Below are positions 4,265-25,273 of a DNA stretch of 32,000 nt, in pieces; the first letter of the stretch is position 1; each line of letters opens with the position of its first letter. Under the pieces are notes generated by a model, which saw nothing but the letters and a program-made list of their open reading frames with translations, was not told where the DNA came from and did not search any database. The stretch is taken from the NCBI GenBank assembly GCA_963718915.1, contig CAVRAI010000007.1:390001-422000 (forward strand), read 5' to 3'. This DNA is from an uncultured Chloroflexia bacterium (GTDB lineage: Bacteria; Chloroflexota; Ktedonobacteria; Ktedonobacterales; JADMIN01). Both the position numbers and the translations under genes were made by a program.

Positions 4265-4265
4265 A

Positions 4266-4307: not shown

Positions 4308-4314
4308 CTAATGG

Positions 4315-6489: not shown

Positions 6490-6552
6490 TGTCTGCTCTC
6501 CTTATTTTGTGCTTGACTGCACCGAAAGCGATGAACCAATGAATCTGACAGT

Positions 6553-6580
6553 ATTCTAGCACGGGCTGTATGGTTCGTCA
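6553..6580 (-). promoter_or_regulatory. Candidate sigma70-type promoter for the TIR-TPR gene
   Basis: On the minus strand: TGACGA (6575-6580), a 16-nt spacer, then TAGAAT (6553-6558), about 60 nt upstream of the ATG at 6489. Hexamer matching only. Confidence 0.3.
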
Positions 6581-6656
6581 CGGGGAAAGATGGTTCAAAA
6601 TCTATCGAGATGCGCGCGATGAGGGCGTCTGGGTATTCATGCCAGGCGAAGCCTTC

Positions 6657-8423
6657 CTATGCGGGTGAGATCAGCAGGTCGGAGAAGGTAATCGTGCCAT
6701 TACTGCCTCCAACGAAGACACCGACCTGACCGGATTGCGGCACGTCATCCCCAACATAGCTGCCGACATACTGCCCGTTGACGAAGAAGCTCAACCTGGA
6801 ACCTTGCATCAGCACTGCCAGCCGGTTCGTCGCGTCCAGCCCCTGATGAATCGCCGCTAAGCCGCCAAAGGAGCCTTCATAGCGCAGGTCTCTATAATTG
6901 GACTCTGGCCCGTCGCCTTGTTTGGGGCGGAGATTCAGATGCCACTCGCCGTTCGGCGTGATCGTGAAGGCCAGCGCTGTGTTGCTGCCCGAATTTGCGC
7001 GAAATAATATGCCCGCGTCGTTCAAGTCGAAGTCCACCTGCTGGCGCATCGTCACCTCAACCAGCCCATCATGCATCGTTTGGGGGATGAGGCTGCCAAC
7101 ATTACAGCAGGTATCGGACGTGAAGACATAGCCGCTGGGCGTAAAGCTAACGCCCTTTGCGGCATCCGCTGAGGTGAGCGTCCACTGGAGCGTATTCGCC
7201 GTCAGTGGATCGCTGATATGTGACGTTGCGGTCTCCAATTGCGTAAGTTGCCCCCCAAAATACCACTGTTGCGCAGATGGGATGAGAATGCCCCCAAGCA
7301 GCACAAGCACCGATAACGCAGCGGCACATATGGCGGCTGGCCAGCGTGGCAGTGCTGACTCCCCAAAATGCCACGCGCTGGCCGCGAGCAGTCTGGGACG
7401 CCGCCAGGGAGATAGTTCCGAGACTTCAGACGAGATATGGAGCGCGCCGGGATTCAGGTCGCGTAGCGGAAAGTTCACCCGCGCCTGGACGAGTTGAGCG
7501 AGTCGCTGCCCTGGGTCTTCAGCAAGCACATACGGTGGGTAGGTAAGCCAGAGCAGGCTTGTATGCAGTCCAATCACGGCGTAAACGATATTGGAGCGCG
7601 GGTTGCTCATCTGTACAGGATTCATGGCGAAGGCAAACCAGCCGCGCGCCTCCGACCAGGGCAGCGCGTGTTTGCCCCAATGCAGGCCATCCCCGCGCGC
7701 CTCAACCTGGATTGCGCGTACCTTGCGTGTGATCGAGACAAACCACAACCCGCTCTGGATAGGGAACAAAGCGACTAAGGCGTACATCTGCCATGGAAAG
7801 AAGTTCTGCGCTAACAGCGTTCGTTCCACGAAGAACAGCGCCACCCACATTGCGACAACGCCCACACCCAGGCACAGGTTGAATCCGTACGTGATCTGCT
7901 GAGTGCGCAGCAGTCTCGACTCGGGCGGCATCACCTTGAACGATGTGGCGGGTGTGTCCAGTGGTTGCGCTGCCTGGCCAGTGGGGAAAATCGCAATCGG
8001 CGGCGCGAGGCTATCGTCGCCTGCCAGCGCGCCCCAGCTCAGACTACGGATGCTCACCTGGCCGGGAGCGGATATTCCTGCTGGCGCTCGGCGCTCCTGA
8101 CGGCGAACATGCCAGATGCTCCCCAGGATGATGACTTGCACCAACATCGCGAGACCCGCGAGCATCCAGTAAAACATCCAGTCAATGAAGCCATTGCTGT
8201 ACCACAAGGTGATAAGGCTTACCAGCGCAATGATGGTATACACAATGATAATGTGCCATCTTGTCCCCCACGGGTCCATGGCGCGCTGGAGTACTCCTCG
8301 CTGTGGCGGCTCGGCGAGTTGCTGGAGACCGCCGACAAGCGCTTTACATACCTTATCGGACGGATAGAGCGGAAGGCCGGGAATATAGCCATACATATCT
8401 CGTTCTGGCGTCTGTATATTCAT
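6657..8423 (-). CDS. Multi-pass membrane protein with C-terminal extracytoplasmic ConA-like (LamG/DUF1080-like) jelly-roll domain
   Basis: 588-aa ORF. Hydrophobic helices at about aa 55-105 (2), about 185-235 (2) and about 365-385 (1). The C-terminal ~190 aa, 'DGLVEVTMRQ...AGILFRANSG..ALAFTITPNGEWHL...SFFVNGQYVG...GQVGVFVGGSNGTITFSDLLI', match the pattern of DUF1080/LamG-type lectin folds. The family assignment is by eye. Confidence 0.7.
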   Translation of the reverse strand: MNIQTPERDMYGYIPGLPLYPSDKVCKALVGGLQQLAEPPQRGVLQRAMDPWGTRWHIIIVYTIIALVSLITLWYSNGFIDWMFYWMLAGLAMLVQVIILGSIWHVRRQERRAPAGISAPGQVSIRSLSWGALAGDDSLAPPIAIFPTGQAAQPLDTPATSFKVMPPESRLLRTQQITYGFNLCLGVGVVAMWVALFFVERTLLAQNFFPWQMYALVALFPIQSGLWFVSITRKVRAIQVEARGDGLHWGKHALPWSEARGWFAFAMNPVQMSNPRSNIVYAVIGLHTSLLWLTYPPYVLAEDPGQRLAQLVQARVNFPLRDLNPGALHISSEVSELSPWRRPRLLAASAWHFGESALPRWPAAICAAALSVLVLLGGILIPSAQQWYFGGQLTQLETATSHISDPLTANTLQWTLTSADAAKGVSFTPSGYVFTSDTCCNVGSLIPQTMHDGLVEVTMRQQVDFDLNDAGILFRANSGSNTALAFTITPNGEWHLNLRPKQGDGPESNYRDLRYEGSFGGLAAIHQGLDATNRLAVLMQGSRLSFFVNGQYVGSYVGDDVPQSGQVGVFVGGSNGTITFSDLLISPA

Positions 8424-8718
8424 ATGTGCGCGATACCTCTCGCTGATACTGGCACAAACGCTTCCAGCGTGAAATGCGCTTCGTCTAGGCCGCTAAATGG
8501 CCAGCAATCGTCACGATTATACACCGCACGGCTACTGCGTCAATCATCGCGCGAAATCTCATCGGTCATATTGCCCGCACCGCTTCAGTATTTCTGCCGT
8601 CGTTATCCTCTCCCTTGGCATAGTCCGCTGGGTGTGGTAGAAACCAGGTGAGAGGTGTGCTCCATCGGAGGCGCGCACCGCCTGTATGCTATGCCTACCA
8701 CCCAAGGAGAACAATCCA

Positions 8719-9287: not shown

Positions 9288-9403
9288 CGTGCCATGTGAA
9301 ACTATAAGCCCCCATTAAGGCCATCTTAAGCGCACACTAAGCTTGCTGATACATAATAGCCTCCATATGGTGGAGCAATCTTCGCAGAGTGGGGTGGCGC
9401 AGC

Positions 9404-11093
9404 ATGGATGATTCCTCCCGTCCGCAGTCGCGAGCCAGCGACGCGGGGCGTCTGGCGGATGCCACAGATACGATTCCGCGAGCCGGAAGCAGCTGGCAGT
9501 TGCCAGAGGTTCAGCCGCCGACCGCCGGTATCACCGATGACCGGACGATACCCATCTCGTCGCCGGGCAAGGCGTCGCGGCGTGGGGTGAGTCGCCGCAA
9601 AGCGCTGATTGGCGCGGGCGCCGGAGCCGTTGGGCTGGGGCTGCTCGGCACGGGCGCCGCCGTATTTCTAGCGCGCCAGCAGTCGGCCAGCCCCGCCACG
9701 CTCTATGCGGACGACGCCGCGAAGATAGGCCACCTGTTGCGCCGGGCGGGCTTCGGCTCGTCGCCCGCCGACCTTCAGCAGTACCTGAGCCTGGGCGTCT
9801 CTGGCGCCATCGAGAAGCTGCTCAACTTCTCTGGCGTCTCCAACACGGCGCTCGATGCCCGGCTCAACTCACTCAACCTCAACTTCACCAACCGGCAGGA
9901 TCTGATTCGCTGGGTGCTGCTGCGCATGATCTACAGCCCGCGCCCATTCGAGGAGAAGCTGACGCTCTTCTGGCATGGCGTGCTGACCAGCAGCTTCACC
10001 AAGATTGGCGGCACCACGCACCTGCCGTTCATGATCCAGCAGAACCAGTTGCTGCGCGCGAAGGGGCTGGGGCAATTCGACGACCTGATGCACGCGGTCA
10101 CGATTGATCCAGCCATGCTCTACTGGCTGGATGGACGGCTTAGTTCCGGCCACTCGCCCAACGAGAACTACTCGCGCGAGTTGATGGAACTCTTCACGAT
10201 GGGTATCGGCAACTATACCCAGGACGATGTGCATCAGGGGGCGCTGGCGCTGACCGGCTGGGTCGTCCGGGCGGATGGGGCGCACTACGTTCCGGCGCGC
10301 CACTATAACGAGCTCGGTCACCTTCCTGGGGCATACTGGCCCGATGACCGTAGACGACGTCATCAGGATCGTCTGCGCGCACCCGGCCACCGGCACGCAT
10401 ATCGCTCGGCGCATGTGGAGCTTCTTCGTCTACGACAACCCCAGCCCGCAGGACTTGAAGCCGCTCTCCGACGCCTATTACCAGCACGATCACAGCATCG
10501 CGGCGATGGTGCGCGCCATGTTCTCCTCGCCCGCGTTCTTCAGCGCGCAGGCCTACCGGGCGCGGGTCAAGAGTCCGCTGGAGTTCGTCGTCGGCGCCAT
10601 CCGCGCGCTGGGGCTAGAGACGAACGCCACCGGGCTGGCGACCGTCCTCAACGCGATGGGCCAACTACCACTCGATCCGCCCAATGTGGCGGGCTGGCCA
10701 GGAGATGGCGCGAGTGGGGCATGGATGTCCACGCAGGCCTGGGTCACGCGCATCAACCTGACCGACTTGCTGGTCTCGATTGCGGCGGGCGCGCACCCGA
10801 AGGGCGGCCCGAAGATCAACCTGACGACCCCGGGAGGGACGTCGGCCATCCAGCAGGCGATCACACAGCAGAAGATTGCCAGCGCCGATGCTCTGGTGAG
10901 CTACTACGTCGCCATGCTGCTGGACAACACGCTCGATCCCAGCCGCCGCGCCGTGCTGGCCGATGCGCTGACGAACAGTCCGATTCAGGGCGGCGCGACG
11001 TTCACGCTGGCGGGCGGCAAGAAGGTCTCCGCCGCCGCGACGGCTGAGATGCTCTACCTGCTGATGTCGCTGCCTGAGTACCAGATGAATTGA
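9404..11093 (+). pseudogene. DUF1800-family protein (Tat signal), interrupted by a +1 frameshift near 10316
   Basis: The N-terminal part is in the 9389 frame ('SRRKALIGAGAGAVGLG' twin-Arg signal; 'IGHLLRRAGFG', 'FWHGVLTS', 'YSRELMELFTMG'). After 'RHYNE' that frame turns into Arg-rich nonsense. The homologous C-terminal part ('VTFLGHTGP...VCAHPATGTHIARRMWSFFV...VKSPLEFVV...LPEYQMN') continues in the 10275 frame. Removing one G from the GG at 10316-10317 restores 'HYNELVTFLG'. Confidence 0.8.
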
Positions 11094-11118
11094 GGGGGAA
11101 GTCCTTCGTGGGCGCCGT

Positions 11119-11190
11119 CCGCAGCATAAATGCTGCGGCGAATTGGCGGCGAATGGGCAGGGAAATTCGCCGTGGCCTTCAGGCTACGGC
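11119..11190 (+). repeat. Structured intergenic element, copy 3
   Basis: Hairpin CGCAGCA-TAAA-TGCTGCG at 11120-11137 has a stem fully compensated relative to copies 1 and 2. GGCGAAT is duplicated (11137-11143, 11148-11154) and pairs with ATTCGCC at 11165-11171. Tail is GGCCTTCAGGCTACGG. Lies between DUF1800 and DUF1501, 51 nt before the ATG at 11242. Confidence 0.75.
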
Positions 11191-11241
11191 GGGCCAAAGT
11201 ACAACAGTCGAGCGCGATTGATTCATGAGAGGTGGTGCGTC

Positions 11242-12570
11242 ATGCCCAACACGCCCAACACGCCTGGCCAGCCATGCAAACCGTTCAATGCGCCATTCAG
11301 CCGGAGAGCGATGATTCGCGATGGACTGCTCGCGGTTAGCGCGGGCATGGTCATGCCGACGATCTTCTCGCGCGCCGTCCGGGCGGCCTCCAACGCGGCG
11401 CATGAGGGCGCGCACTGGGCGCAGGCGGCGCAGGGACGCACGCTGATTGTGGTGCAGATGGCGGGCGGCAACGACGGCCTGAATACGCTCATCCCCTACA
11501 CCGATGGCGCGTACTATTCCGCACGGCCAACGCTGGCCATCGCCCAGGCGGACGCCCTCCATCTCAACGACCGGCTCGGGCTGCATCCCGCGCTCAAGGC
11601 GCTGATGCCGCTGTGGCAGCAGGGACGCCTGGCCGCCATCGAAGGTGTCGGCTATCCAAACCCCAACCTGTCGCACTTCGCCGCGATGGACATCTGGCAG
11701 ACGCTCGATCTGAACGGCCAGGGCGGGCAGGGCTGGCTCGGCAAGTACGTCGCCGGGCTGGTGGATAAAGATGGCCACCCATTCCAGTCGCTCGCCGTCG
11801 GCACCTCGCTGCCGGTCGCGCTGAACGCGATCAACGCCGATGTGCCCGTGGTCGCCTCGCCGTCTACCTATCGGCTGCAGCCCGACCCGGAGGGCGCCAG
11901 CGCGGCCAAAAATGGCACGGCCGCCAATGCGCGGGTCGAGACGCTGCTGAAGCTCTACAATACCTATCCACGTTCGGCGCCGTATGCCGCGCTGCTCGAT
12001 GCGACGGCCCAGGCGGCGGTGGATGGATCGCGCCAACTCGATACCGCCGTCGCCAGCTACGTCCCGAAGGCGCAGTATCCGAACACGAACTTCGCCAAGG
12101 GCTTGCAGGTGCTGGCGGAGGTGATCGTCCAGGGGCTGGGGCTGCGCGTTGGCTATGTGACGCTGGGCGGCTTCGATACCCATGGCGAGCAGGCGAATAC
12201 CCAGGCGGGGCTGCTGCAACAACTCGCCGAGGGGCTGGCGGCGTTCTATAGCGACTTACAGGGACACAATGCCGCCGATAATGTCGTGGTGATGACCTGG
12301 TCGGAGTTCGGGCGGCGCGTGGAGGAGAACGCCAGCGCGGGCACCGACCACGGGACGGCGGCGCCCCTCTTCGTGCTGGGCAACGCGGTGCAGGGCGGCG
12401 TCTATGGCGAGCCGCCCGACCTCACGAAGCTGGACCCCAACGGCAACCTCGTCTTCACGACGGACTTCCGCTCGATCTACGCCACTGTGCTCGACCGCTG
12501 GCTCGGCGCGCCCGCCAGCGCGGTGCTCGGCGGCAACTATGGCGAGCAGGCGTTCCTGCCGCCCGCATGA
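11242..12570 (+). CDS. DUF1501-family protein (sulfatase-like fold, Tat signal)
   Basis: ATG at 11242 is preceded by GAGAGGTGG. The longer ORF from 11143 runs through repeat copy 3. Motifs: twin-Arg signal 'FSRRAMIRDGLLAVSAG', 'LIVVQMAGGNDGLNT', 'GGFDTHG', 'SEFGRRV.EN...GTDHG'. It forms the usual DUF1800-DUF1501 gene pair. Confidence 0.88.
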   Translation: MPNTPNTPGQPCKPFNAPFSRRAMIRDGLLAVSAGMVMPTIFSRAVRAASNAAHEGAHWAQAAQGRTLIVVQMAGGNDGLNTLIPYTDGAYYSARPTLAIAQADALHLNDRLGLHPALKALMPLWQQGRLAAIEGVGYPNPNLSHFAAMDIWQTLDLNGQGGQGWLGKYVAGLVDKDGHPFQSLAVGTSLPVALNAINADVPVVASPSTYRLQPDPEGASAAKNGTAANARVETLLKLYNTYPRSAPYAALLDATAQAAVDGSRQLDTAVASYVPKAQYPNTNFAKGLQVLAEVIVQGLGLRVGYVTLGGFDTHGEQANTQAGLLQQLAEGLAAFYSDLQGHNAADNVVVMTWSEFGRRVEENASAGTDHGTAAPLFVLGNAVQGGVYGEPPDLTKLDPNGNLVFTTDFRSIYATVLDRWLGAPASAVLGGNYGEQAFLPPA

Positions 12571-12577
12571 CCTGATT

Positions 12578-12597
12578 CCCTCTCCCACAGGAGAGGG
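12578..12597. terminator. Hairpin after DUF1501 (no U-tract)
   Basis: CCCTCTCC (12578-12585), loop CACA, GGAGAGGG (12590-12597), beginning 8 nt after the stop. No T-run follows, so a terminator function is uncertain. Confidence 0.35.
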
Positions 12598-12892
12598 GGA
12601 GCCAGAGGCAGTCCTGCAAAAGCTATCAAAAGCCATAACAGGAAAATGCGAACACAAAAGCGTCTGCCCCGCGCATCGCGGCAGGGGTGACACACCACAC
12701 AGCCGTTATTGCCGACATTTTCAGTCGGTTGCGGGAGGCAGACATATTTTCTATTTAGCTGGCCAGAGAGACGTGTACGGCGCACTCTGGCCTCAGCCGG
12801 GACAAGACCGCGCTGGTTCAGCATAGGTGGCCGCGTCCGTCGATTTCCCGCGAAGAGGACTCGTGCGGATTTACTGGCCGGAAACGCTGGAT

Positions 12893-13016
12893 CATCCGCC
12901 GCACGCGCCAGACGGAACCCTTCGTTGTTGTTGAAGTTGTCCCGCCTGTTGTCGTTACGGTAGGCCGCGCGCGTATTCTGGGAATCGTTGTTCCATGAAC
13001 CGCCACGCAGCACTGA
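12893..13016 (-). pseudogene. Decayed 3'-terminal fragment of an FGE-sulfatase-domain gene
   Basis: Aligns without gaps, at a 360-bp offset, to 13253-13376 (the 3' end of the TIR-FGE gene); most positions are identical by eye. It encodes 'VLRGGSWNNDSQNTRAAYRNDNRRDNFNNNEGFRLARAADD' versus 'VLRGGSWDVGSQYTRAAYRDGSRWVSFDDSGGFRLARAAAG'. The rest of the FGE domain is absent upstream and the native stop is lost. Confidence 0.75.
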
Positions 13017-13166
13017 GATCGGCCTGCCCCACGGCATACGCGCAAGAGGAGCGACCTCCCGCACGTCTTCCATACTGGCTACGACGGGCGACAACAGTAG
13101 GCGGATGCACGACCAGGACTTTGGCGTAGAACGCTTCACGCCGTTGCAGTTCCCAGGCAACGCCGC

Positions 13167-13194
13167 TTGATTGCCTATAGCTTGCATTTATAAT
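13167..13194 (+). promoter_or_regulatory. AT-rich promoter-like island (hexamers on both strands)
   Basis: Plus strand: TTGATT (13167-13172), 16 nt, TATAAT (13189-13194). Minus strand: TTGTCT (13211-13216), 18 nt, TATAAA (13187-13192). This is the only strongly AT-rich patch between the FGE fragment and the TIR-FGE stop. Hexamer matching only. Confidence 0.3.
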
Positions 13195-13241
13195 GCATAT
13201 CGATGCACCCAGACAAGAAACAAGAAATCAGAACCAGAGGA

Positions 13242-14540
13242 TTATGCTGAACCAGCCGCCGCACGCGCCAGACGGAACCCCCCGCTGTCGTCGAAGCTGA
13301 CCCACCTGCTGCCGTCACGGTAGGCCGCGCGCGTATACTGGGAACCGACGTCCCACGAACCGCCACGCAGCACTCGATTATCAGTGGAATCTGGATTCTC
13401 TCGTCCGTCGTTTTTACGGTAGGGATAGGGCTGGAGGAGGCTGCTCGTCCACTCCCAGACGTTGCCTGCCATATCCTGGACATGATACGGGCTTTCGCCG
13501 GTGGGATAGCGACCGACGGGCGTAGTCCTCCCGATGCCGCTCTCGCTGGTGTTGCAACGTGCCTTGTCGAACGTGTCGCCCCAGGGATAGATGCGGCCAT
13601 CCGTCCCGCGCGCCGCCTTCTCCCATTCTGCCTCGGTCGGCAGCCGCCATGGCTGGCTCGTAAGCTTGGCCAGCCAGGCGCAATATGCGACTGTGTCATT
13701 CCACGAGACACAGACCACAGGATGGTCAGGGTGCGCCTGCTGCGTCGCCCAGTCTACATCATCCCAGCTTTTTTCTGGCTCTCTCACGGCTTTGGCACGG
13801 ACGGCGCAGGCGTATTCAGCCACGGTGACGGGGTGCTGGCCGATGGCGAAGGCGTCCACCTCAACTGGATATTGTGGCGTCTCGTCGTCATCGGCATCTT
13901 TGTCGCGGCTCTTGTCGCTGCCCATGGTGAAGACGCCTGCCGACACCGGACAAATCGGCGGCAGGATGCACTCAACCCCGCCGATGGTATAGCCGCGAAA
14001 GCCAAGGTCATAGTAGGGTTTGGGTGTCAGATGGTGCGCGGGCGCGCTGTTGGCGGGGACGGGCGCCGGGCCGAGTGGCGGCAGGGTATCAGGCGGTGGA
14101 GGAGGTGGTAGCGGATCGCCACCATGCGCGTCGAGGATCACCCGATACGCCCGCATGGCGGCGGCTTGCGGTGGAAATGCCGCTCCGCCCGGCTGCTCGA
14201 TCCGCTTGTAGCCCTCCAGAAGAAGCGGCACATCGCAGGGAATCGCGGTGACGAATTGAATCGTCTCGATGCTCCCTTTGCGCCGTAGCGCCCGCGCCGC
14301 GTCTATTTCGTCGTTGACCCACCCAGAGTTCACCGCTGCCGGGCTGAGAATGGCAATGAAATGCTGACACTTGCGCAGTTCAGCTTCAATCACCTGCCGC
14401 AACGCTCCCCAGCCGAGATTATGCTCGTCGTACCAGACGGCGTTCTCATTGCCCAGCGCCTCGCGGAGCGCCCCCACGAACGCGCGACAGAAGTCATTAT
14501 CGGTGTGGCTGTGGCTGACGAAAACCTGTGGTGTGGCCAT
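13242..14540 (-). CDS. TIR domain - FGE-sulfatase (SUMF1/formylglycine-generating-enzyme-like) domain fusion protein
   Basis: ATG at 14540 is preceded by GAGGGA; the ORF-track start at 14708 adds 56 non-homologous residues. TIR: 'VFVSHSHTDNDFCRAFVGALR...AVWYD...FIAILSPAAVNSGWVNDEIDAA' (E78, codon 14307-14309). Poly-Pro linker: 'PLPPPPPPDTLPPLGPAPVP'. FGE domain hallmarks: 'FTMGSD', 'HPVVCVSWNDTVAYCAWL', 'RLPTEAEWEKAARG', 'AGNVWEWT', 'VLRGGSW', 'GFRLARA'. 432 aa. Confidence 0.9.
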   Translation of the reverse strand: MATPQVFVSHSHTDNDFCRAFVGALREALGNENAVWYDEHNLGWGALRQVIEAELRKCQHFIAILSPAAVNSGWVNDEIDAARALRRKGSIETIQFVTAIPCDVPLLLEGYKRIEQPGGAAFPPQAAAMRAYRVILDAHGGDPLPPPPPPDTLPPLGPAPVPANSAPAHHLTPKPYYDLGFRGYTIGGVECILPPICPVSAGVFTMGSDKSRDKDADDDETPQYPVEVDAFAIGQHPVTVAEYACAVRAKAVREPEKSWDDVDWATQQAHPDHPVVCVSWNDTVAYCAWLAKLTSQPWRLPTEAEWEKAARGTDGRIYPWGDTFDKARCNTSESGIGRTTPVGRYPTGESPYHVQDMAGNVWEWTSSLLQPYPYRKNDGRENPDSTDNRVLRGGSWDVGSQYTRAAYRDGSRWVSFDDSGGFRLARAAAGSA

Positions 14541-14780
14541 ATATCCCTCAACAGCAATCAGCATGAGCGCTACCACGAGCAGTTGGCGCGATGGCTTGCA
14601 CGCACAGTGTAACCCATCTATGGCGCGATGGGAAGAGCGCGGAATGGTTGATAAGCGTTGTGCGCGCCCGTCGCACGATACCGCAACGGACGCGATGAGC
14701 CGCGGCATTCATGCTGCGATGCTGGAGCATCTCCAACCTCGCCCGCGCCAAAAACACCCGCTACATATCTCAACCTTCAC

Positions 14781-14870
14781 ATCCGAGTCACGTAACCGCC
14801 GCACGGGCGAACGCGCCAGCATGACCGGGCCGAGCAGCTTGCCCACGCAGACGACGAAGAGCGTCATGCA
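14781..14870 (-). pseudogene. Decayed 3'-terminal fragment of an MFS transporter gene
   Basis: Aligns without gaps, at a 1240-bp offset, to 16021-16110 (the 3' end of the MFS gene). It encodes 'TLFVVCVGKLLGPVMLARSPVRRLRDSDV' versus 'TLFVVCAGKLLGPVLLARSPVRRLRDPDV'. No upstream MFS sequence precedes it. Confidence 0.75.
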
Positions 14871-14995
14871 CAGACGACCTTGAAGGCGATGCTGTATCTC
14901 CGACTTACCGCCCCGCGCCGACGTGCGGTCGCCTTGCCCCCACACTACGCAGAAATACTTATGGCGTAGTCGCACATGCGGATAGATACTACACC

Positions 14996-15952
14996 GTGGC
15001 AGTGGCCATAATGCCTCTTGCGTTGCGAAAAAGAGTGTGCCCCATGCAACCACCGCAGAATCCACCAGAGCAATCACCACAGCAATCACCACAGCAAACA
15101 TCGCAACAGCCGCCGCGGGATGCTCTGTATGGAGGCGACCACAACCAGAGACATAACGGTGCCGACGGCGATGCCAACGACGCGTCCGCTGCACCGCCGT
15201 TCGAGTCTCCGCACCAGGCACAGCCACATATACAGGCACGCCCGCCCCTGAGTCGCAGGACGCGCTGTCTCATCGTTGCTAGTACCCTGCTTGCCGTGTT
15301 CGTCTGTGGCTCAACTGCCTGGGTGCTGGCGGCGCATACGTCTTTGTTGTCTTCGCAGGTGGTCGGTTCGCGTGCTACCAACACCCCCTACCTCACACCG
15401 ACCTCGTACTATACCCCTGTACCGACGATTCCCGTGTCACCGGGCACGTTAAGCGCCATCATTTACACCCCCACCCTCGGAGGCTCCCTTGGCGCCTTCC
15501 AGCAGAAATACGGCCCCTCCACCGACGGCAGCGGCCTGACCTACACCGCTGTGATCGCGGGCCAGCCGGTACAGATGCTGATTGCGCCGGGTGATCCGAG
15601 CAAGAGTTTCGATGGACGGGCGCACGTGGTCGAAGTGCAGGTGTGGGCGCCGAGTGACCGGCTCGCTAGCGAGCACTGGAGCGCCTCGACCGTAGCTGCA
15701 ATAGTGAATATGCTCTTACCCGCCGACGCGCGCTTCCAGCGCACCGCCTCCATCAGCAGGCTGGGCGATATCGTCGTCACCGAGCACATCTACACCAGCA
15801 AAGGAATGGCGAGCACGTTTACGCCCGACCAGTTCATCACTGCGTCTAGCGGCGCACAGGTGTCTGTCGGCACAGTCAACTATTTCTGCGAGCGGCAACC
15901 GCCCGCCACCAGTGGCTATGAATTGTGTGACGTCTCCATTGGCGCCTCGTAG
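14996..15952 (+). CDS. Hypothetical single-pass membrane-anchored protein with Q/P-rich N-terminus
   Basis: 318-aa ORF. The start is uncertain (GTG 14996, ATG 15011 or ATG 15044). It has a low-complexity 'QPPQNPPEQSPQQSPQQTSQQPP' tract, one TM helix 'CLIVASTLLAVFVCGSTAWVLAA', then a ~200-aa extracytoplasmic domain I do not recognise. High GC3 supports coding. Confidence 0.6.
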   Translation: MAVAIMPLALRKRVCPMQPPQNPPEQSPQQSPQQTSQQPPRDALYGGDHNQRHNGADGDANDASAAPPFESPHQAQPHIQARPPLSRRTRCLIVASTLLAVFVCGSTAWVLAAHTSLLSSQVVGSRATNTPYLTPTSYYTPVPTIPVSPGTLSAIIYTPTLGGSLGAFQQKYGPSTDGSGLTYTAVIAGQPVQMLIAPGDPSKSFDGRAHVVEVQVWAPSDRLASEHWSASTVAAIVNMLLPADARFQRTASISRLGDIVVTEHIYTSKGMASTFTPDQFITASSGAQVSVGTVNYFCERQPPATSGYELCDVSIGAS

Positions 15953-15996
15953 ATGCAGCTCAAGCAGCACCGTTCCTTCCGTATGTCAGGCGTCCA

Positions 15997-17286
15997 CTAC
16001 ATACTCTCAGCCTGTACAACATCTGGATCGCGTAGCCGCCGCACGGGCGAACGCGCCAGCAGCACCGGGCCGAGCAGCTTGCCCGCGCAGACCACGAAGA
16101 GCGTCGCGCGCACGCCAAGCGTCTGCCCCAGGACGCCGCCGAGCGCCAGCCCGAGGACCGTCGCGCAGCCCTCGACCGCCCGCAGCGTCGCGTGCAGCCG
16201 TCCCTGCATCCGGTCGGGCGTCGTCCGCTGAAAGTGGCTCAGGCGCGTGACACTGTATATCGTGTGCGCCGCGTCGAAACACTGTCCGAGTATCAGCACC
16301 CCCACCGCCAGCCAGGCGGGGCCGCTCGCCAACGGGACGGTAAATGCGCCGAGGGTGTAGATGAGCATTGACGCCATCAGGATGCGCCCAACCGGCCAGC
16401 GCCGCGAGATGCGTGCCACGACCAGCGTTCCGGCGAATGAACTGACGCCGCCTACCGCGTAGATGACGCCCATCACCACAGGCGCGAGATGCAGGTCACG
16501 GACAAGATAGAGCGTTATCAGCGCGCCCAGGGCGTTGCCAAAGAGGGTGTCAACCGCCCCGGCAGCCGCCAGCGCCCGCCGTGTGGCATCGGCGGCTACG
16601 AATCCCAGCCCCTGCGCCACCTCGCGCGCCATGCTCTTTCGCGCTTCAGGCACAACAATCGGCGGCGACTCTTTCGTGCGAATCGCGAGAAGCGAGACGG
16701 CGGAGACGACGAACGTGACGGCATCCACCAGAATCGCCAGCGGCGCGCCTGCCACCTGGACCAGCACGCCCGCGACGCTCCAGCCCGAAACCTCGGCCAG
16801 CGACTCGCTGGCAGCCAGTTTGCTGTTGCCCTCGACCAGATCCTCACGCCGCAGCAGTGACGGCAAGAACGAGGGATAGGCGACATCGAAGAAGACGCTA
16901 CATACACTCACCAGCACAGCTACGACATACAACTGTTCCATGCGCAGCGCTCCCAGGACGGCAGCTAGCGGGATGGAGGCGAGCGCCAGCGCCCGGCCAA
17001 TATCGGCGGCGATCAGCAGCGGACGGCGACGCAGCCGATCCACCCAGACGCCCGCGAAGAATCCGAGCAGCAGCCCCGGCACGACCTCGGCGGCGGCCAA
17101 CAGCGCCATCTGGCCCGCGCCCGCGCCAAGCAGCAGCGCAGCAAGCAGTGGCAGGGCGAACGTGGTCAGCAGCGAGCCGAACAGCGAGATCGACTGCCCC
17201 GCCCAGAGCTTGAGAAAATCAGCATGACGCCAGAGGTTTGTCGAGGCGTCGGGCGTATCTTCACGAGATGGTAGACGAACGGACAT
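15997..17286 (-). CDS. MFS transporter (EntS/MFS_3-like)
   Basis: ATG at 17286 is preceded by GGAGAG. 429 aa with a ~12-helix hydrophobic profile. The N-terminus 'LWRHADFLKLWAGQSISLFGS' is typical of this MFS subgroup. The ORF-track extension to 17478 has no support. Confidence 0.85.
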   Translation of the reverse strand: MSVRLPSREDTPDASTNLWRHADFLKLWAGQSISLFGSLLTTFALPLLAALLLGAGAGQMALLAAAEVVPGLLLGFFAGVWVDRLRRRPLLIAADIGRALALASIPLAAVLGALRMEQLYVVAVLVSVCSVFFDVAYPSFLPSLLRREDLVEGNSKLAASESLAEVSGWSVAGVLVQVAGAPLAILVDAVTFVVSAVSLLAIRTKESPPIVVPEARKSMAREVAQGLGFVAADATRRALAAAGAVDTLFGNALGALITLYLVRDLHLAPVVMGVIYAVGGVSSFAGTLVVARISRRWPVGRILMASMLIYTLGAFTVPLASGPAWLAVGVLILGQCFDAAHTIYSVTRLSHFQRTTPDRMQGRLHATLRAVEGCATVLGLALGGVLGQTLGVRATLFVVCAGKLLGPVLLARSPVRRLRDPDVVQAESM

Positions 17287-19355: not shown

Positions 19356-20183
19356 ATGTCTGATACGAATGAATCACCAGCGTCGGCCACTGGACTCAAC
19401 CTGCGGGCGGACTGCGCGCGCTGCTTCGCGCTGTGTTGTGTCGCGCCGGCCTTCGCCGTCTCGGTGGATTTCGCGATCAATAAAAAAGCCGGGCGGGCAT
19501 GTCCCAATCTGCAAGCAGACTTCCGCTGCGGCATTCACACGCGGCTCAGGCAGCAGGGCTTCCGTGGCTGCACTGTCTATGACTGCTTTGGCGCGGGACA
19601 GAAAGTCTCTCAGGTTACGTTTGGCGGAAAGGACTGGCGTCAGGCTCCGGACACTGCGGAGCAGATGTTCCGCGTCTTCTCGATTATGCGGTCGCTGCAT
19701 GAACTGCTCTGGTATCTGACCGAGGCGCTGACGTTACCACGGGCAGAACCACTGCACGATGAACTTCAACGCGCGCTGGCGGAGACGGAACGCCTGACCC
19801 ATAGCAGCGCCGATGAACTGGTACAACTGGATATGGCGGCGCACGGGCGAGAGGTCAATGGTCTGCTGCTGCGCGCGAGCGAGCTGGAGCGCGCCGAAAT
19901 TCAGCCCCAGAAGGACTTCACCAGAGCCGATCTCATCGGAGCCAACCTCAAAGGCGCCGACCTGAGGGGCGCCAACTTGAGAGAGGCGTATCTCATCGCG
20001 GCGGACCTGCGAGACGCCGATCTGCGCATGGCTGACGTTATCGGAGCCGACTTCCGCGATACAGACCTCAGCGGCGCCGACCTCACCGGGAGCATCTTTC
20101 TCATCCAGTCGCAACTGGATGCGGCGAAGGGCGATGACGCGACAAAGCTGCCGCCCTCGCTCACTCGTCCGGCGCATTGGTAG
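19356..20183 (+). CDS. Pentapeptide-repeat protein with Cys-rich N-terminal domain
   Basis: AGGAGA lies 10 nt upstream. The N-terminus is 'CARCFALCCVAP...GRACPNLQADFRCGIH...GCTVYDCFGAG' (8 Cys, reminiscent of CxxCxxCC/YkgJ-type metal-binding domains, recalled from memory). The C-terminus is 'ADLIGANLKGADLRGANLREAYLIAADLRDADLRMADVIGADFRDTDLSGADLTG', a canonical A(D/N)LxX array. Confidence 0.85.
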   Translation: MSDTNESPASATGLNLRADCARCFALCCVAPAFAVSVDFAINKKAGRACPNLQADFRCGIHTRLRQQGFRGCTVYDCFGAGQKVSQVTFGGKDWRQAPDTAEQMFRVFSIMRSLHELLWYLTEALTLPRAEPLHDELQRALAETERLTHSSADELVQLDMAAHGREVNGLLLRASELERAEIQPQKDFTRADLIGANLKGADLRGANLREAYLIAADLRDADLRMADVIGADFRDTDLSGADLTGSIFLIQSQLDAAKGDDATKLPPSLTRPAHW

Positions 20184-20221
20184 CTCGTAGCGCCGCCTGA
20201 TGACCTCCGCATGACCTCCGC

Positions 20222-20263
20222 AAAAAGCCGCCCCTCGAAGCGTGAGGAGCGGCATGTTTGTTT
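20222..20263. terminator. Bidirectional terminator between convergent genes
   Basis: AAAAA, then GCCGCCCCTC (20227-20236), loop GAAGCGT, GAGGAGCGGC (20244-20253, one mismatch), then ATGTTTGTTTG. There is an A-run on one side and T-rich sequence on the other. It lies between the stops at 20183 (+) and 20278 (-). Confidence 0.6.
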
Positions 20264-20277
20264 GCAACCAGGATTTG

Positions 20278-21046
20278 CTAGTCGTCGCTGTCGAGGATAT
20301 CGCCAGAGTTGCCGGTGTAGGCGTTGACCCAGACACCAGCTGCGGCCGGTGGATGGTGGCCGCTGTCCTTGCCCGACATAGCGCCAGCCCCACTGCGGCT
20401 CGTCAACGGTCGGAGTCCCGCTGAAGTATTTGGCGGTGAAGCTCACATACCCAGGGCAGTTGCCCAGAATATCGCAGTGATAGTCCACCGTCGCGCCGCC
20501 GTTGACCGCGCCAGATGTCGGCCAGGCCGCTGGATCACTGACAAAGAGCTGGCCGGTGATGGTGAAGCGCGCGCTGCCGGAGAACGATCCGTATTCCTCG
20601 CCCGAAAGCGTTCCACCAGCGCCAGGGCTGGTCTGGCCTGCCACCGCCTTGAAGGACGAATCATAGTAATTGACGATGGCGCAGTATTGGTCGGGCCCGA
20701 CGTTCCAGATCGTGATGGAGCGGTGATCGCGGTCGAATGCCCAATAGTTGCCTGCCTGACCCGAGTCGGCATCGTTCGCGATAGATTCAGTCACGTCGAT
20801 GACTTTGTTCCCTCGGACGGCGCCAGCGCTGGCGCACGAGTACGAAAATGCCGTTGAGTGATTGCTGCCGTCCCCAGAGCCGCGATGATGTTCCAGACTA
20901 AACATGCTGGGTTTGACGGTAGCATGCGTTGCTGGATGCGCGCTCGTCTTGTTGGTTGTTCCATGCGCCATCGCGGGAATCACGAAGATCACGGTGGCCG
21001 CCGCGACCGTCATCACAATAGCGCCAACTGCCAGCAGTCTCTTCAT
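20278..21046 (-). pseudogene. Secreted hypothetical protein, interrupted by a +1 frameshift at the CCC run 20372-20374
   Basis: ATG at 21046 is preceded by GAGGAG. Signal peptide 'MKRLLAVGAIVMTVAAATVIFVIPAMAHG'. The frame is good (high GC3) to '...DEPQWGWRYVG'. After that the 398-aa ORF becomes Arg-rich antisense of the pentapeptide gene, while the +1 frame continues with high GC3 as 'KDSGHHPPAAAGVWVNAYTGNSGDILDSDD*', stop at 20278-20280. Deleting one G from the GGG (minus strand) restores 'YVGKDSG'. Confidence 0.65.
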
Positions 21047-21201
21047 TGAAAGCTCCTCTACGAACACCGAGATGTGTTCGTACTTGGCACAGCGCACTCG
21101 TCACTGCGCCACACAACCAATCGCTCCTGACCCTGGGGTAGAGCTGGACGCCATCAGGAAACGTCCAGCCATGCGTTGCCGAATGAAGTTGCGAGTGATG
21201 G

Positions 21202-23289
21202 TTATTGTCGCCACTGGCCACGCTGAGGGTAGTCGAAGTCTTCCTCATTGTCGCGCCGCCGTCGGGCCAGGATCAGGAAGAGCAGCGACGACAGGATGAT
21301 GAACACCGCGATGCTCCCGATAATCACGGGGAAAGTTGGGAAGCCCGAGCTGCCGACAAGTCCAACTGAGGTAGGTGTCGGCGTCGCGCTGCCACCCGTA
21401 ACCGTGGTTGCCGTCGATTGTCCTGGGCCAGTCGTCTCGGTCGGACTCACCGTCACGCTCGCAATCGCGGCGGCGGTCTGCGTGGCAGCCAGGTTATAGA
21501 CCGTCAGCGCGAAACAGTCTGTCGCGCCGGTATTGCCAGCGGAGTCGGCGCCGCGCATACACACCGTATAGCGGCCCGCCGTCAAGCCACTGATATGCGC
21601 CGTAACGCCCTCGGACACCTGATTGAAGGAGCCGTCCGTCGCGCTCATCGCGTGATACGCGCCGCCGTTGATGTTATATTGGCCCGATGCGATGGCGAAG
21701 CTGCCTGTCGTCGAGTCGCTGAGCGTCCCAGTGAGCGTAAAGGCGGTACTCGATGCCGGTGAGGCGGGGGCCGTGAAGACGCTCTTCGCGACTGGCCCGG
21801 CGCAGATGGTTGCCTGCGACGTGCGGAACGGAGAGAACGACACGCTGCCAGTGGCCGCGTTGCCGGTGCCCGATGCGTTCGTCGGCGCGTGTGGCCCGCT
21901 GGCTGTGCCCCACCAGTTCTGCGTGGCGGGCAGGCTCATGCCCGCGGCGACCGTCGCGCCAGCGTTTGAGTTGCTCAGGATGCAGTTCTGGGCCGCGCTC
22001 ACCGACATGCCGGACGACAGCGCATCAGACGTCAGGCCATCCACGAATCCTGAGATGATATTGCTGGTGATGCTGACACCCGCCGAACCCGCGGGGCTGA
22101 CGAGTTCGAAGCCCGCGAGTGGCCGCGAGGAGCCGCTTCCCCGGATCAGGTTGTGGTCAATGACATTGCCGGAGCCAATCGTCCCCTTGTATGAGATGGC
22201 GTAGCCGTGGCCGCTGCTGCTCCCCATATTGAAGGTGTTGTTCTTGATTGTGACGCCCTTGATCTCCGAGGTGACGCTCCCACTCGTCGTACCGAAGCCA
22301 TGCAGGGAGATGGCGGAGTCGTCCGGGGTGCTGGACTGCGTAGCAGCGACACCGGCATTGTTGAATAGGTTGCCGGTGATCGAGATATTGTTATACCGGC
22401 CTACCAGTCCGCCACTGTAGCCCGCGTCAACACCGACCCCCAGGCCGGGATAGTTCCCGAAGACATTGCCCGAGACCACTTGCGGCGCGGTGACATCAAC
22501 GGTGTTGTCGGCGAGGAAGAACACGCCTTCCGCCCACCAGCCAAAGGTTGCTGGACTCGTGCTGATGTCGTTGAGTCCGTGCAGGTTCAGTGTGTTGCCG
22601 GTAAAATTGACGGCCCCTGGATTCCCCTCGATGAGCGCCGCTCGGAACACGCCCCGAAACGAGTTGTTTTTCACCGTGACTGTGGCGGAGTTGCTGGCGA
22701 TGTAGATTGAATCTGTCTGATCCGCCAGCAGCTGAGGGTCGAGTGTGGTATCACCGTAAAAGAGGTTGTTGTTGATGGTGATGACGTCACTCGCATTGTG
22801 ATCGGTGACCGTCATCAGGATTCCGTCGTCGTTCGCGTCATTGACGATCGCGCCCTCGATGGTGAACCCAGACACACTCACATTGCCTGGGGTCGCGGGC
22901 GCGATGGCGATCAGGCCGCCTATCGCCGTACCCGAGGCGGGCGCGCCGTTGATGATGGAGTGACCGACGCCCGCGCCTACCAGATGGATCGGCTTGTTGA
23001 TGGCGATGGGCGCATCTGATGTGCCTGGGCCATACGTTCCCGGCCCAACTTTGATCGTCGCGCCATTCGCCGCTGCGGCGATTGCGGCATTGATGCTGGT
23101 GTAGGCGCATCCTGAGGAGCACACGTCATATGTGGCGGCGCGCGCCTGATGCGCCAGCGCCAGACTCCCGGCAGCCATCGCCAGAAGCAGCCCCACGACA
23201 AGCAATACGCTAGCCCAGCGGGACCGCATTGCTCTGCGCAACGTGCTGATGCCAACGCCCGAAGCATGATGCCCTGAATGAGCGCTCAT
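21202..23289 (-). CDS. Secreted right-handed parallel beta-helix repeat protein (NosD/pectate-lyase-fold-like) with C-terminal membrane anchor
   Basis: ORF 21202-23313. The start is ambiguous: TTG 23313, ATG 23289, or ATG 23229, which begins the signal peptide 'MRSRWASVLLVVGLLLAMAAGSLALAHQARA/ATYD'. 'YDVCSSGCAYTSINAAIAAAANGATIKVGPGTYG' plus many 'I..N.F.G' rungs are typical of PbH1 beta-helices. An Ig-like region is followed by a Thr/Pro-rich stalk, the TM helix 'FPVIIGSIAVFIILSSLLFLILA' and 'RRRRD'. Confidence 0.8.
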   Translation of the reverse strand: MSAHSGHHASGVGISTLRRAMRSRWASVLLVVGLLLAMAAGSLALAHQARAATYDVCSSGCAYTSINAAIAAAANGATIKVGPGTYGPGTSDAPIAINKPIHLVGAGVGHSIINGAPASGTAIGGLIAIAPATPGNVSVSGFTIEGAIVNDANDDGILMTVTDHNASDVITINNNLFYGDTTLDPQLLADQTDSIYIASNSATVTVKNNSFRGVFRAALIEGNPGAVNFTGNTLNLHGLNDISTSPATFGWWAEGVFFLADNTVDVTAPQVVSGNVFGNYPGLGVGVDAGYSGGLVGRYNNISITGNLFNNAGVAATQSSTPDDSAISLHGFGTTSGSVTSEIKGVTIKNNTFNMGSSSGHGYAISYKGTIGSGNVIDHNLIRGSGSSRPLAGFELVSPAGSAGVSITSNIISGFVDGLTSDALSSGMSVSAAQNCILSNSNAGATVAAGMSLPATQNWWGTASGPHAPTNASGTGNAATGSVSFSPFRTSQATICAGPVAKSVFTAPASPASSTAFTLTGTLSDSTTGSFAIASGQYNINGGAYHAMSATDGSFNQVSEGVTAHISGLTAGRYTVCMRGADSAGNTGATDCFALTVYNLAATQTAAAIASVTVSPTETTGPGQSTATTVTGGSATPTPTSVGLVGSSGFPTFPVIIGSIAVFIILSSLLFLILARRRRDNEEDFDYPQRGQWRQ

Positions 23290-23632
23290 CCCTTGATCGT
23301 GGGTAGTACCCAATTGCCTTCACCCCCTCATCATGCCGACCGCAAGCGGACCCCGAAGAACTTATTTCACCATCGTGATATTGGTGGGTAGGAACGCAAG
23401 CGGCCCGGTCGATTGCTAGAAACGGGATGGTTCGATCTCTGTTCACCTGCCGCCGCGCTCACAACGGCGAGCGGCGCCTTTTCGTGTCGTGCTGTGACGC
23501 TTCCCCGTTACCGTCCTCAACGGACAATGTAATGAGCAGTAACGTCTGATTGGTCACAGAGAGGTCACGCTGATCGGTGGGATGACCATCTGAAAAGGCT
23601 GAGGATAATCTTTGCTGGGGAGTCTGCTGGCG

Positions 23633-25267: not shown

Positions 25268-25273
25268 CGGATA

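Follow-up and report, generated by a model that had tools for sequence, protein, structure and literature searches.

A TIR-FGE protein as the probable variable protein of a diversity-generating retroelement lacking RT and avd in cis in a Ktedonobacterales genome

Results

A TIR domain fused to an FGE-fold domain

The window (the whole 32-kb stretch of DNA analyzed) carries at 13242..14540 (-) a gene for a 432-residue protein that consists of a TIR domain, a proline-rich linker, and a domain with the FGE/C-type-lectin (CLec) fold. We identified it by translation, by Pfam matches to TIR_2 and FGE-sulfatase, and by identity to the database protein P0001. The translation contains the motifs DHPVVCVSW, GNVWEWT, LRGGSW, and GFRLARA and a PPPPPP linker; reading frame, length, motifs, and linker are all as the initial annotation had given them. 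A longer open reading frame reaching 14708 exists, and the homologues start with MATPQ. AlphaFold2 gave a confident model of the whole protein (pLDDT, 86), and Pfam, AlphaFold2, and Foldseek together upheld the proposed architecture, in which a TIR effector is joined to a sensor of the FGE fold at the C terminus. We found neither a signal peptide nor a transmembrane-like start at the N terminus, and we infer from the sequence that the protein is cytoplasmic.

The TIR domain comprises residues 1 to 139 (14124..14540, [-] strand) and was recognized by Pfam, PDB phmmer matches to Cat1 and AbTIR, AlphaFold2, and Foldseek. The TIR_2 match scored 54 bits against a cutoff of 28 (E value, 2.3e-14), and a ThsB_TIR match was marginal (21.5 versus 21.2). 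Modeled alone, the domain had a pLDDT of 89. Its best 50 Foldseek matches were all TIR domains, with the TIR NADases SPARTA TIR-APAZ, AbTIR, SpbK, and SARM1 as neighbors. We found that the motif S72-x-W74-x3-E78 is retained (E78 codon, 14307..14309) and that E78 is invariant across 38 to 39 aligned homologues. W74 and E78 align with WTNYE of AbTIR and WCWDE of Cat1 in the PDB phmmer comparison. The earlier claim of a TIR fold with a glutamate at the catalytic position is borne out by Pfam, the predicted fold, the invariance of E78, and the alignment with AbTIR and Cat1. Sequence and model suggest that the TIR domain is probably an NADase, and a single-polypeptide sensor-NADase is the best functional reading of this putative function.

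Alternatively, the TIR domain could be no NAD+-depleting executioner but a scaffold, or a generator of signals passed to an unlinked effector or to a regulatory pathway; in a mycelial bacterium, such a pathway might control differentiation or programmed cell death. In that case the protein would act as a sensor for tunable signaling rather than as an antiviral abortive-infection protein. The weak ThsB-type match fits signal-producing TIRs, and cyanobacterial multidomain targets of diversity-generating retroelements (DGRs), including TIR-like ones, have been read as tuning signal transduction (PMC7517822). In addition, the neighborhoods of the homologues, whose survey the initial annotation had proposed, hold varied housekeeping genes and gave no defense-island signal. 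In contrast, we detected no receptor gene (ThsA, SLOG, SAVED, or another) in the window, and none is conserved at homologue loci. The ThsA-type partner of Thoeris (SIR2/SLOG or Macro/TM) is likewise absent from the window and not conserved at those loci. The glutamate of the WxxxE motif is invariant, and the closest matches (AbTIR, Cat1, SPARTA, and SpbK) are NAD+-consuming effectors. We consider the signaling role unlikely and retain the NADase as the probable activity.

The C-terminal domain resembles a binding scaffold

A conserved beta extension and the FGE-sulfatase/CLec-fold domain occupy residues ~151 to 432 (13245..14090, [-] strand), as identified by Pfam, Foldseek, and sequence. The FGE-sulfatase match is strong (178 bits versus a cutoff of 23.3; E value, 3.9e-52). 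Foldseek matched the domain to ToxD, FGE, PvdO, EgtB, and the DGR variable protein TvpA (2y3c; E value, 1e-12; TM score, 0.68). PDB entries of FGE mutants are also among the Foldseek matches. In human FGE, the Cu-binding pair, C336 and C341, sits between the GGS and GFR motifs. The target protein has no cysteine after C329, and the catalytic pair between GGS and GFR is missing. The initial annotation had called the domain a complete FGE-sulfatase with all of its hallmarks; the scaffold motifs are indeed there, but the domain is not complete, because the Cu-binding cysteines are absent and the stretch that would hold them is hypervariable. The absence of the cysteine pair suggests that the domain serves as a scaffold for binding, with no enzymatic role.

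If the domain were instead an active enzyme of the SUMF1/EgtB/PvdO type, the TIR fusion would regulate or localize an oxidative modification activity. The strength of the Pfam match, the fold matches to FGE and EgtB, the sub-threshold NCBIfam matches to EgtB, SenA, and PvdO, and the enzyme names that NCBI gives to the homologues all point in this direction. However, every NCBIfam score is far under its cutoff (EgtB, 102 bits versus 360; SenA, 94 versus 420), no cysteine lies between GGSW and GFR, and the would-be active-site stretch is the hypervariable segment that the retroelement rewrote (see below). A DinB-like iron-binding domain is also lacking, since the N terminus is occupied by the TIR domain. 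We rejected the FGE/EgtB identity on the grounds of the missing cysteine pair, the sub-threshold NCBIfam scores, and the position of the variable segment over the active-site stretch, and we regard an enzymatic role as very improbable.

A variable repeat and a template repeat differ at adenines

Downstream of the gene we found a near-repeat of its 3' end, which the initial annotation had overlooked. The last ~110 nt of the gene form the variable repeat (VR; 13266..13374, [-] strand; codons ~390 to 425 of 432), defined by its ungapped alignment to the second copy and by hypervariability in 102 homologues. This copy, the template repeat (TR), is offset by 360 nt (12906..13014, [-] strand); it is noncoding, rich in AAC codons, and recognizable by its adenine-biased differences and by homology to the TRs of L086, L092, and L091. 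The VR ends in an IMH-like 3' boundary, GCGGCGG-CTGGTTCAGC (13246..13265, [-] strand), and by sequence comparison the TR ends in an IMH*-like counterpart, GCGGCGG-ATGATCCAGC (12886..12905, [-] strand). The positions that tell the two ends apart are shared by all four loci (the window, L086, L092, and L091), and the difference between IMH and IMH* is thereby conserved.

Over the 129-nt alignment of VR and TR that includes the adjoining IMH and IMH*, there are 20 differences, 18 of which fall on the 32 adenines that the TR has among these positions (hypergeometric P = 1.6e-11). Inside 12906..13014 proper we counted 17 of the 20, with 16 at adenines, and within the VR the differences are confined to 13281..13356. 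The adenine changes are A>G (14), A>T (3), and A>C (1); 16 of the 18 are at codon position 1 or 2, mostly in AAC codons. Across the 102 homologues, codons with a TR adenine have an entropy of 3.22 bits, compared with 0.90 for the other VR codons and 1.36 for the rest of the domain. Because the differences are almost all at TR adenines, we read them as the signature of a DGR.

The downstream repeat could also be an ordinary tandem duplication of the 3' end of the gene that has decayed, with no retroelement involved. An open reading frame (12537..13187) does span the repeat, with a weak FGE-sulfatase match. Against such a duplication, the 18 of 20 differences fall on adenines, the repeated part of the gene is only ~110 nt long, and in L086, L092, and L091, the same TR with its flanking element lies beside genes for a DGR-type RT and for Avd. 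The adenine specificity effectively refutes a duplication.

The comparison of the two repeats shows that the VR was copied from the downstream TR by adenine-mutagenic retrohoming. This process rewrote up to 18 codons on the predicted ligand-binding face of the CLec/FGE fold, which allows ~2e15 variants. The window VR has 2 non-adenine mismatches to its own TR and 13 to 20 to the TRs of other loci, and therefore homing into it used the window TR. A 25-mer common to the VR and TR had no exact match in the genome contig collection, and the adenine-degenerate VR/TR pattern had none in the metagenome contig collection.

RT and avd are missing from the window and present at related loci

Neither a Pfam RT (RVT_1) match nor an RT motif turned up when the 32 kb were searched in six frames, and only ~30 nt of homology to the 3' end of avd are left. 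A related Ktedonobacterales genome carries the syntenic locus L092, whose flanking genes are 84 to 92% identical to those of the window at the nucleotide level. The order of L092 is TIR-FGE target, RT (motifs IGNQTSQ and YVDD), avd, and TR, and 11 of its 13 VR/TR differences are at adenines. When we compared the window with L092 and L086 by blastn, 144 unique nucleotides (13057..13200, [-] strand) stood in place of the 1.6 kb that carries RT and avd in L092. Within this scar, 13094..13124 can still be aligned with the very end of the L086 avd region. We ruled out a MITE or IS origin of the junction, whose sequence is unique in the window and all fetched loci. The alignments thus show a deletion, as read from sequence, of the RT and avd genes, which the orthologous locus has between its target and its TR. 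Since the VR, the TR, and the element 3' of the TR remain without an RT in cis, we call the cassette degenerate.

Other loci retain more of the cassette. L086 contains MoxR, target, RT, avd, and TR, and L091 contains a TIR-TPR-FGE target, RT, bAvd, and TR. The avd gene is frameshifted in L092 and L086, and bAvd is intact in L091 and in L131, a second, distant TIR-FGE locus that has an intact bAvd and a TR and no RT within 13 kb. In L090, which is orthologous to the L086 locus, RT, Avd, and TR are all absent. The L092-type VR is identical in 6 assemblies; the whole gene is identical too, which indicates a clonal population. None of the RT-less paralogues L081, L083, L085, L001, L087, and L090 qualifies as a remote target of any of the four known TRs, because each has at least 5 non-adenine mismatches.

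A conserved element follows the TR

The ~230 nt 3' of the TR (12657..12885, [-] strand) form a conserved noncoding element that, from its conservation and consensus fold, probably corresponds to the 3' portion of the DGR RNA. It is 93% identical to its counterparts in L086 and L092, which are 92% identical to each other. The identity of the TR and target gene to those loci is lower (77 to 80%), and flanking orthologues differ by 24.9% at 4-fold sites. Of the 66 pairs in the consensus fold, 8 show compensatory change. An element identity of 93% against this neutral-site difference suggests constraint through most of the history of the lineage. Scans of the window with Rfam (gathering thresholds) and for tRNAs gave no matches, and no promoter or terminator signal near the locus exceeded the expectation from shuffled sequence.

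This conservation bears on whether the cassette is still active. The RNA of the TR and post-TR element, possibly transcribed with the target gene, could be used by an RT and Avd encoded elsewhere. The locus would then be a working satellite, without an RT of its own, in a DGR network spread over the genome. In favor of this, the element is conserved beyond neutral divergence, the TR keeps its 32 adenines with the AAC codons intact, and L131 likewise combines an intact bAvd and TR with no RT within 13 kb. The use of TR and RT in trans is known from experiment and has been inferred in Thiohalocapsa (PMC5758913; PMC10907252). However, there is no RT in 32 kb and Avd is missing too, a recent deletion accounts for the conservation of the element equally well, and related cassettes have decayed, by avd frameshifts or, in L090, by complete loss. 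We regard continued activity as possible but improbable. A broader version is more doubtful still. In it, cassettes of target, TR, and 3' RNA element without RT (the window and, independently, L131) would be kept as satellites, all supplied in trans by one RT encoded at another place in the genome, and a mycelial Ktedonobacterium would operate a dispersed repertoire of minimal, single-chain TIR receptors, each hypervariable and with a template of its own. If it were true, no simpler adaptive-like receptor-effector fusion would be known.

Discussion

We propose that the TIR-FGE gene encodes the variable protein of a Ktedonobacterales (Chloroflexota) DGR that has lost its RT and avd in cis, and that the product is a single-chain TIR sensor with predicted NADase activity whose specificity no longer changes, barring the action of an RT in trans. 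We give this reading a probability of about 0.7. According to this model, the diversified CLec surface would bind an invader-derived, probably multimeric, ligand, and binding would cluster the N-terminal TIR domains. The assembled TIRs would cleave NAD+ through E78, leading to growth arrest or abortive infection or to an ADPR-derived signal. The specificity would currently be fixed in the source genome, unless an RT and Avd encoded elsewhere serve the retained TR RNA. The DGRs of this clade may be largely decaying, because avd is frameshifted in L092 and L086, RT, Avd, and TR are lost from L090, and no population-level VR variation was seen (the window pattern had no match in the two contig collections, and the 6 assemblies of the L092 type are clonal); the protein may then be a sensor of fixed specificity or one heading for loss.

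DGR-diversified intracellular sensors have been proposed to provide somatic, adaptive-like immunity in multicellular bacteria, and we know of no example that has been put to test. Most described DGR sensors are large multidomain or multigene systems (STAND and MoxR-vWA). A 432-residue TIR-CLec fusion is close to the simplest possible version, with one hypervariable binding face and one predicted enzymatic output. This minimal design, together with a standard assay (NAD+ loss with an E78A control), makes the TIR-CLec family, and especially the intact L091 and L092, a tractable model. The family could reveal whether specificities made by a DGR trigger TIR activation and what they recognize. The window also documents one route by which DGR cassettes decay, in which RT and avd are cleanly lost while the template stays; this is relevant to annotating "orphan" TIR-FGE genes, now named nonheme iron enzymes.

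The initial annotation concluded that the protein fits no described system. This conclusion does not hold given the adenine-specific VR/TR pair in the window and the RT and Avd genes at orthologous and paralogous loci. A search with PADLOC assigned the protein to no defined system, with matches confined to the TIR portion (PDC-S66, ThsB, SAVED-TIR, and TIR-NLR). The link to conflict systems of multicellular bacteria that the initial annotation drew was correct (Kaur 2020, PMC7159879). As for the MoxR-vWA (VMAP) ternary conflict system, neither MoxR nor vWA is in the window, and a bpMoxR gene adjoins a homologue only in L086 and L087/L088. DGR targets carrying TIR have been listed (PMC7517822; PMC10907252) and degenerate RT-less DGR loci have been described (PMC10907252). 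Both were thus known before, and the window locus adds one more. We found no published description of DGRs in Ktedonobacterales.

Among the closest systems are DGR-diversified proteins of multicellular bacteria that putatively sense antigens (Dore et al. 2024, PMC10907252; Kaur et al. 2020, PMC7159879). These also have the VR in a C-terminal FGE/CLec domain, N-terminal effectors that include TIR, and a cytoplasmic location, and they share a filamentous or multicellular host, an occasional MoxR-like ATPase neighbor (compare L086 and L087), and degenerate loci without RT. In contrast to them, the window protein has two domains and no STAND/NACHT NTPase, vWA, or CHAT, with no MoxR in the window; its locus keeps the TR and the 3' RNA element while RT and avd are both gone, and its host belongs to the Ktedonobacterales. 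Cyanobacterial multidomain DGR proteins (Vallota-Eastman et al. 2020, PMC7517822) likewise graft N-terminal signaling or effector domains, TIR-like ones among them, onto a C-terminal CLec VR domain, and they have many paralogues, with "remote" targets dispersed in the genome. Those remote targets lack a TR of their own, whereas the window locus keeps one; they are from another phylum and were read as regulatory tuning.

Treponema denticola TvpA and Bordetella phage Mtd have in common with the window an FGE-type CLec fold with the VR at the C-terminal binding face, an AAC-rich TR, and IMH/IMH*. They are surface or tail-fiber proteins without an enzymatic effector, whereas the window protein is predicted to be cytoplasmic and is fused to TIR. 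The FGE/EgtB/PvdO family shares the fold and scaffold motifs (HPV..VSW, NVWEW, RGGSW, and GFR), but the window protein has neither the Cu-binding cysteine pair nor a DinB iron domain, and its sequence is hypervariable where the pair would lie. With the single-protein TIR antiphage sensors and effectors SpbK, AbTIR-like NADases, SPARTA TIR-APAZ, and Cat1, it shares the TIR fold and the WxxxE catalytic glutamate, and, judging from sequence and model, it would likely be activated in the same way, by ligand-induced oligomerization leading to NAD+ cleavage. The sensors of these systems are germline fixed (coiled coil, Argonaute, and CARF), whereas the sensor surface of the window protein was made by targeted hypermutation.

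TIR and FGE-sulfatase domains of the target gene

Translation of window 13242..14540 (minus strand) gave a 432-aa protein identical in sequence to database entry P0001. Pfam found an N-terminal TIR_2 domain (E = 2.3e-14) and a C-terminal FGE-sulfatase domain (E = 3.9e-52). AlphaFold2 modeled the whole protein with a pLDDT of 86 and the TIR part with a pLDDT of 89. The TIR model matched exclusively TIR domains in the PDB, with SPARTA TIR-APAZ, AbTIR, SpbK, and SARM1 as the best matches. Translation, Pfam, and fold matches thus confirm the TIR plus FGE-sulfatase open reading frame (ORF) of the initial annotation. The S-x-W-x3-E glutamate reported there is present as E78 (codon 14307..14309); it is invariant in 39 of 39 aligned homologues, and in alignments it falls on the WxxxE glutamate of AbTIR, an NAD+ hydrolase, and of Cat1. 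PADLOC assigned no system to the protein and matched the TIR portion alone. We found no export signal in the 432-aa protein, whose N terminus these data show to be a TIR domain with a glutamate at the catalytic position.

The gene carries a variable repeat templated by its own downstream repeat

The final ~110 nt of the target gene are repeated 360 nt downstream on the same strand, which had been overlooked. The variable repeat (VR; 13266..13374, minus strand) forms the 3' end of the gene, and the template repeat (TR) lies at 12906..13014 (minus strand). We found 20 differences in 129 aligned bases, 18 of them at TR adenines (TR to VR, 14 A>G, 3 A>T, and 1 A>C), which occupy 32 of the 129 positions (hypergeometric P = 1.6e-11). 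The TR codons read AAC AAC GAT .. AAT .. AAC GAC AAC .. GAC AAC TTC AAC AAC AAC GAA. The varied codons of the gene coincide exactly with the adenine-bearing TR codons, and the changes fall mainly at codon positions 1 and 2. This bias toward template adenines is what defines a diversity-generating retroelement (DGR). The earlier statement that the gene fits no described system was therefore wrong: it is a DGR target with its VR/TR pair in the window. The 18 templated codons allow about 2e15 possible variants.

The VR ends in CTGGTTCAGC and the TR in ATGATCCAGC; this difference between the 3' boundary sequences (IMH and IMH*) is common to three related loci, and the boundary is DGR-like. We found 2 non-adenine mismatches between the VR and its own TR, versus 13-20 against the TRs of other loci; the VR was therefore templated by its own TR after the TRs had diverged. 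We rejected a 216-aa ORF across the TR (12537..13187) as a gene; it is a "translated" template.

A T-rich motif (TCCTCTGGTTCT.ATTTCTTG.TTCTT) lies directly 3' of the stop codon in the window (13190..13241, minus strand), in the locus of the closest homologue, L086 (5870..5925), and in the syntenic locus L092 (9916..9965). It is kept in these three closely related cassettes and is not found in RT-less paralogues. It is distinct from the GC-rich hairpin that follows the VR in Bordetella phage. The T-rich sequence may be a target-recognition element.

At 90% identity, TIR_2 plus FGE proteins fall into roughly a hundred clusters, almost all of them from Ktedonobacterales (Chloroflexota). We aligned 102 full-length homologues and split the VR codons by the presence of a TR adenine at position 1 or 2. 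Mean entropy was 3.22 bits at TR-adenine codons versus 0.90 at the remaining VR codons; it was 1.36 in the FGE domain outside the VR and 1.88 in the TIR domain. In this alignment, family-wide hypervariability maps to the templated adenines.

The C-terminal domain is a binding scaffold

In the whole-protein model, the C-terminal domain matched ToxD, CalU17, EgtB, FGE, PvdO, and the DGR variable protein TvpA. NCBIfam scores of the 432-aa protein for EgtB, SenA, and PvdO were far under the cut-offs. The Cu-binding Cys pair of FGE sits between the GGS and GFR motifs (residue positions of human FGE). The 432-aa protein has no cysteine downstream of C329, and thus the pair is missing; the stretch between these motifs is the hypervariable VR. 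We therefore rejected an enzyme of the EgtB, SenA, PvdO, or FGE type and concluded that the domain, like those of TvpA and Mtd, is a binding scaffold of C-type-lectin fold and not an enzyme.

The effector-sensor idea put forward for this architecture was right. The repeats show that adenine-mutagenic retrohoming, with the adjacent TR as template, wrote the C-terminal binding face. We infer that the protein is a cytoplasmic single-chain receptor. A ligand, probably a multimeric invader component, would bind the diversified face and bring TIR domains together. By analogy with SpbK, SPARTA, and AbTIR, the assembled TIRs would cleave NAD+ and stop the infected cell. A signaling or regulatory role of the TIR domain is a live alternative (PMC7517822). 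In agreement with the initial annotation, no ThsA-like, cyclase, or NTPase partner is encoded in the window, nor is a SAVED partner, and none is conserved around homologues; a MoxR-like ATPase adjoins the target gene in L086 and in the homologue loci L087/L088 only.

Related loci with and without reverse transcriptase

The syntenic locus L092 comes from a Ktedonobacterales MAG and recurs in JGI metagenomes. One flank that it shares with the window runs from the XPB helicase/DUF790 pair through Rieske and MFS genes; the other holds DUF1501, DUF1800, DUF1269, and hydrolase genes. Nucleotide identity across the flanks is 84-92%. Its order is TIR-FGE target, 370-aa reverse transcriptase (RT) with the DGR-type motifs IGNQTSQ and YVDD, accessory variability determinant (avd), and TR (11 of 13 differences at adenines). 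The 1.6 kb with RT and avd (9942..11542) is replaced in the window by 144 unique bases (13057..13200), and we found no RVT_1 domain or RT motif in any frame of the 32 kb. L086, whose target is 79% identical, has the order MoxR-like ATPase, target, RT, avd, and TR; of the 17 differences there, 15 fall at adenines. L091, in a complete Ktedonobacterales genome, encodes a TIR-TPR-FGE target, RT, bAvd, and TR.

The cassette in the window still has its VR and TR and, downstream of the TR, a noncoding element of ~230 nt (12657..12885, minus strand). Identity of this element is 93% to its counterparts in L086 and L092 alike and 92% between those two; in the same comparisons, identity is 77-80% for the TR and 77-79% for the target gene. 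Divergence at fourfold degenerate sites of orthologous genes in the flanks is 24.9%, and thus the post-TR element is under purifying selection. Its consensus fold has 66 pairs, and double changes in the distant L091 preserve 8 of them; support for the fold, from four sequences, is only suggestive. The element probably forms the 3' portion of the DGR RNA.

Either the RT/avd deletion is recent and the cassette a fossil, or the TR RNA is still served by an RT in trans. Signs of decay in this clade favor a fossil. In both RT-bearing loci, L092 (11100..11500) and L086 (7023..7464), avd is frameshifted at about residue 40-50. The identical frameshifted sequence occurs in five independent L092-type assemblies and is thus not a sequencing error; avd is either a pseudogene, in which case the DGR would be inactive, or recoded by frameshifting. 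L090 corresponds to L086, next to UvrC in both, but is missing 2.2 kb with RT, avd, and TR, leaving the TIR-FGE gene alone; this comparison shows that DGR machinery has been lost recurrently with the target kept. One finding favors use in trans. L131 (JGI Ga0116166_1000427, 5980..7800) encodes a distantly related TIR-FGE protein (33% identity). Behind it come an intact bAvd (E = 1e-20) and a TR for which 13 of the 16 differences fall at adenines; no RT lies within 13 kb, with RuvB upstream and QueA downstream. L131 is an independent RT-less, TR-bearing cassette. Supplying avd, TR, and RT in trans works experimentally (PMC5758913). The L092-type assemblies are clonal, and VR variation was compared only across them.

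The TIR-coding part of the target gene (14106..14540) has no nucleotide homology to that of L092 (8548..9030); the FGE part and flanks are homologous. It matches instead the L086 target, which is homologous over its full length and lies in a different genomic context. In this family, one conserved sensor occurs with two TIR subtypes, a pattern suggestive of domain swapping or gene conversion among paralogous cassettes. L086 also has a second, apparently degraded TIR-FGE paralogue (293..1688, minus strand), which lies upstream of the MoxR gene in opposite orientation, with conserved VR flanks and a diverged center.

Other features of the window compared with L092

A ~4.3-kb segment (about 4258..8562) is missing from L092, which indicates an insertion or lineage-specific gain. 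It contains a second TIR gene (4315..6489, minus strand; 724 aa, TIR_2 plus a long TPR array), whose TIR is 38% identical to that of the target gene with the same WxxxE-type motif, and an adjoining 588-aa ORF (6657..8423, minus strand) without Pfam or PADLOC matches. Just upstream of the target gene is a 1.1-kb insertion (14873..15993), flanked by a duplicated MFS gene 3' end (14758..14865 and 15994..16105; 87% identity). Its ORF (14996..15952, plus strand; 318 aa, Pro/Gln-rich) had no match in Pfam, NCBIfam, or PADLOC. Also missing from L092 is a 3.4-kb segment (20183..23632) with large minus-strand ORFs (19901..21097 and 21202..23313, the latter 703 aa) that had no Pfam or PADLOC match. The DUF1800 gene (9389..11093, plus strand) is split by a frameshift into overlapping ORFs (9389..11047 and 10275..11093), either as a pseudogene or through an indel error of a long-read assembly; in L092 it is single and intact (562 aa). 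At 23633..26662 (minus strand), an XPB/RAD25-type helicase (ResIII, Helicase_C, ERCC3_RAD25_C; strong PADLOC PbeA matches, E = 5e-49) adjoins a DUF790 protein. The two form the archaeal-type XPB-Bax1 pairing, which is conserved in L092.

Comparison with known systems

In open-access text, we found no paper on DGRs in Ktedonobacteria or on the minimal TIR-C-type-lectin architecture specifically. The target gene belongs to an already described DGR class, and the locus itself is degenerate, with no RT in 32 kb. For Thiohalocapsa, published work describes degenerate DGR loci without an RT, variants with the RT deleted, and diversification in trans (PMC10907252). DGR-diversified FGE-type (FGS) domains are known from conflict systems of multicellular bacteria (Kaur et al. 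2020, PMC7159879; Dore et al. 2024, PMC10907252), and TIR-like domains are grafted on DGR variable proteins in cyanobacteria (PMC7517822) and Thiohalocapsa (PMC10907252).
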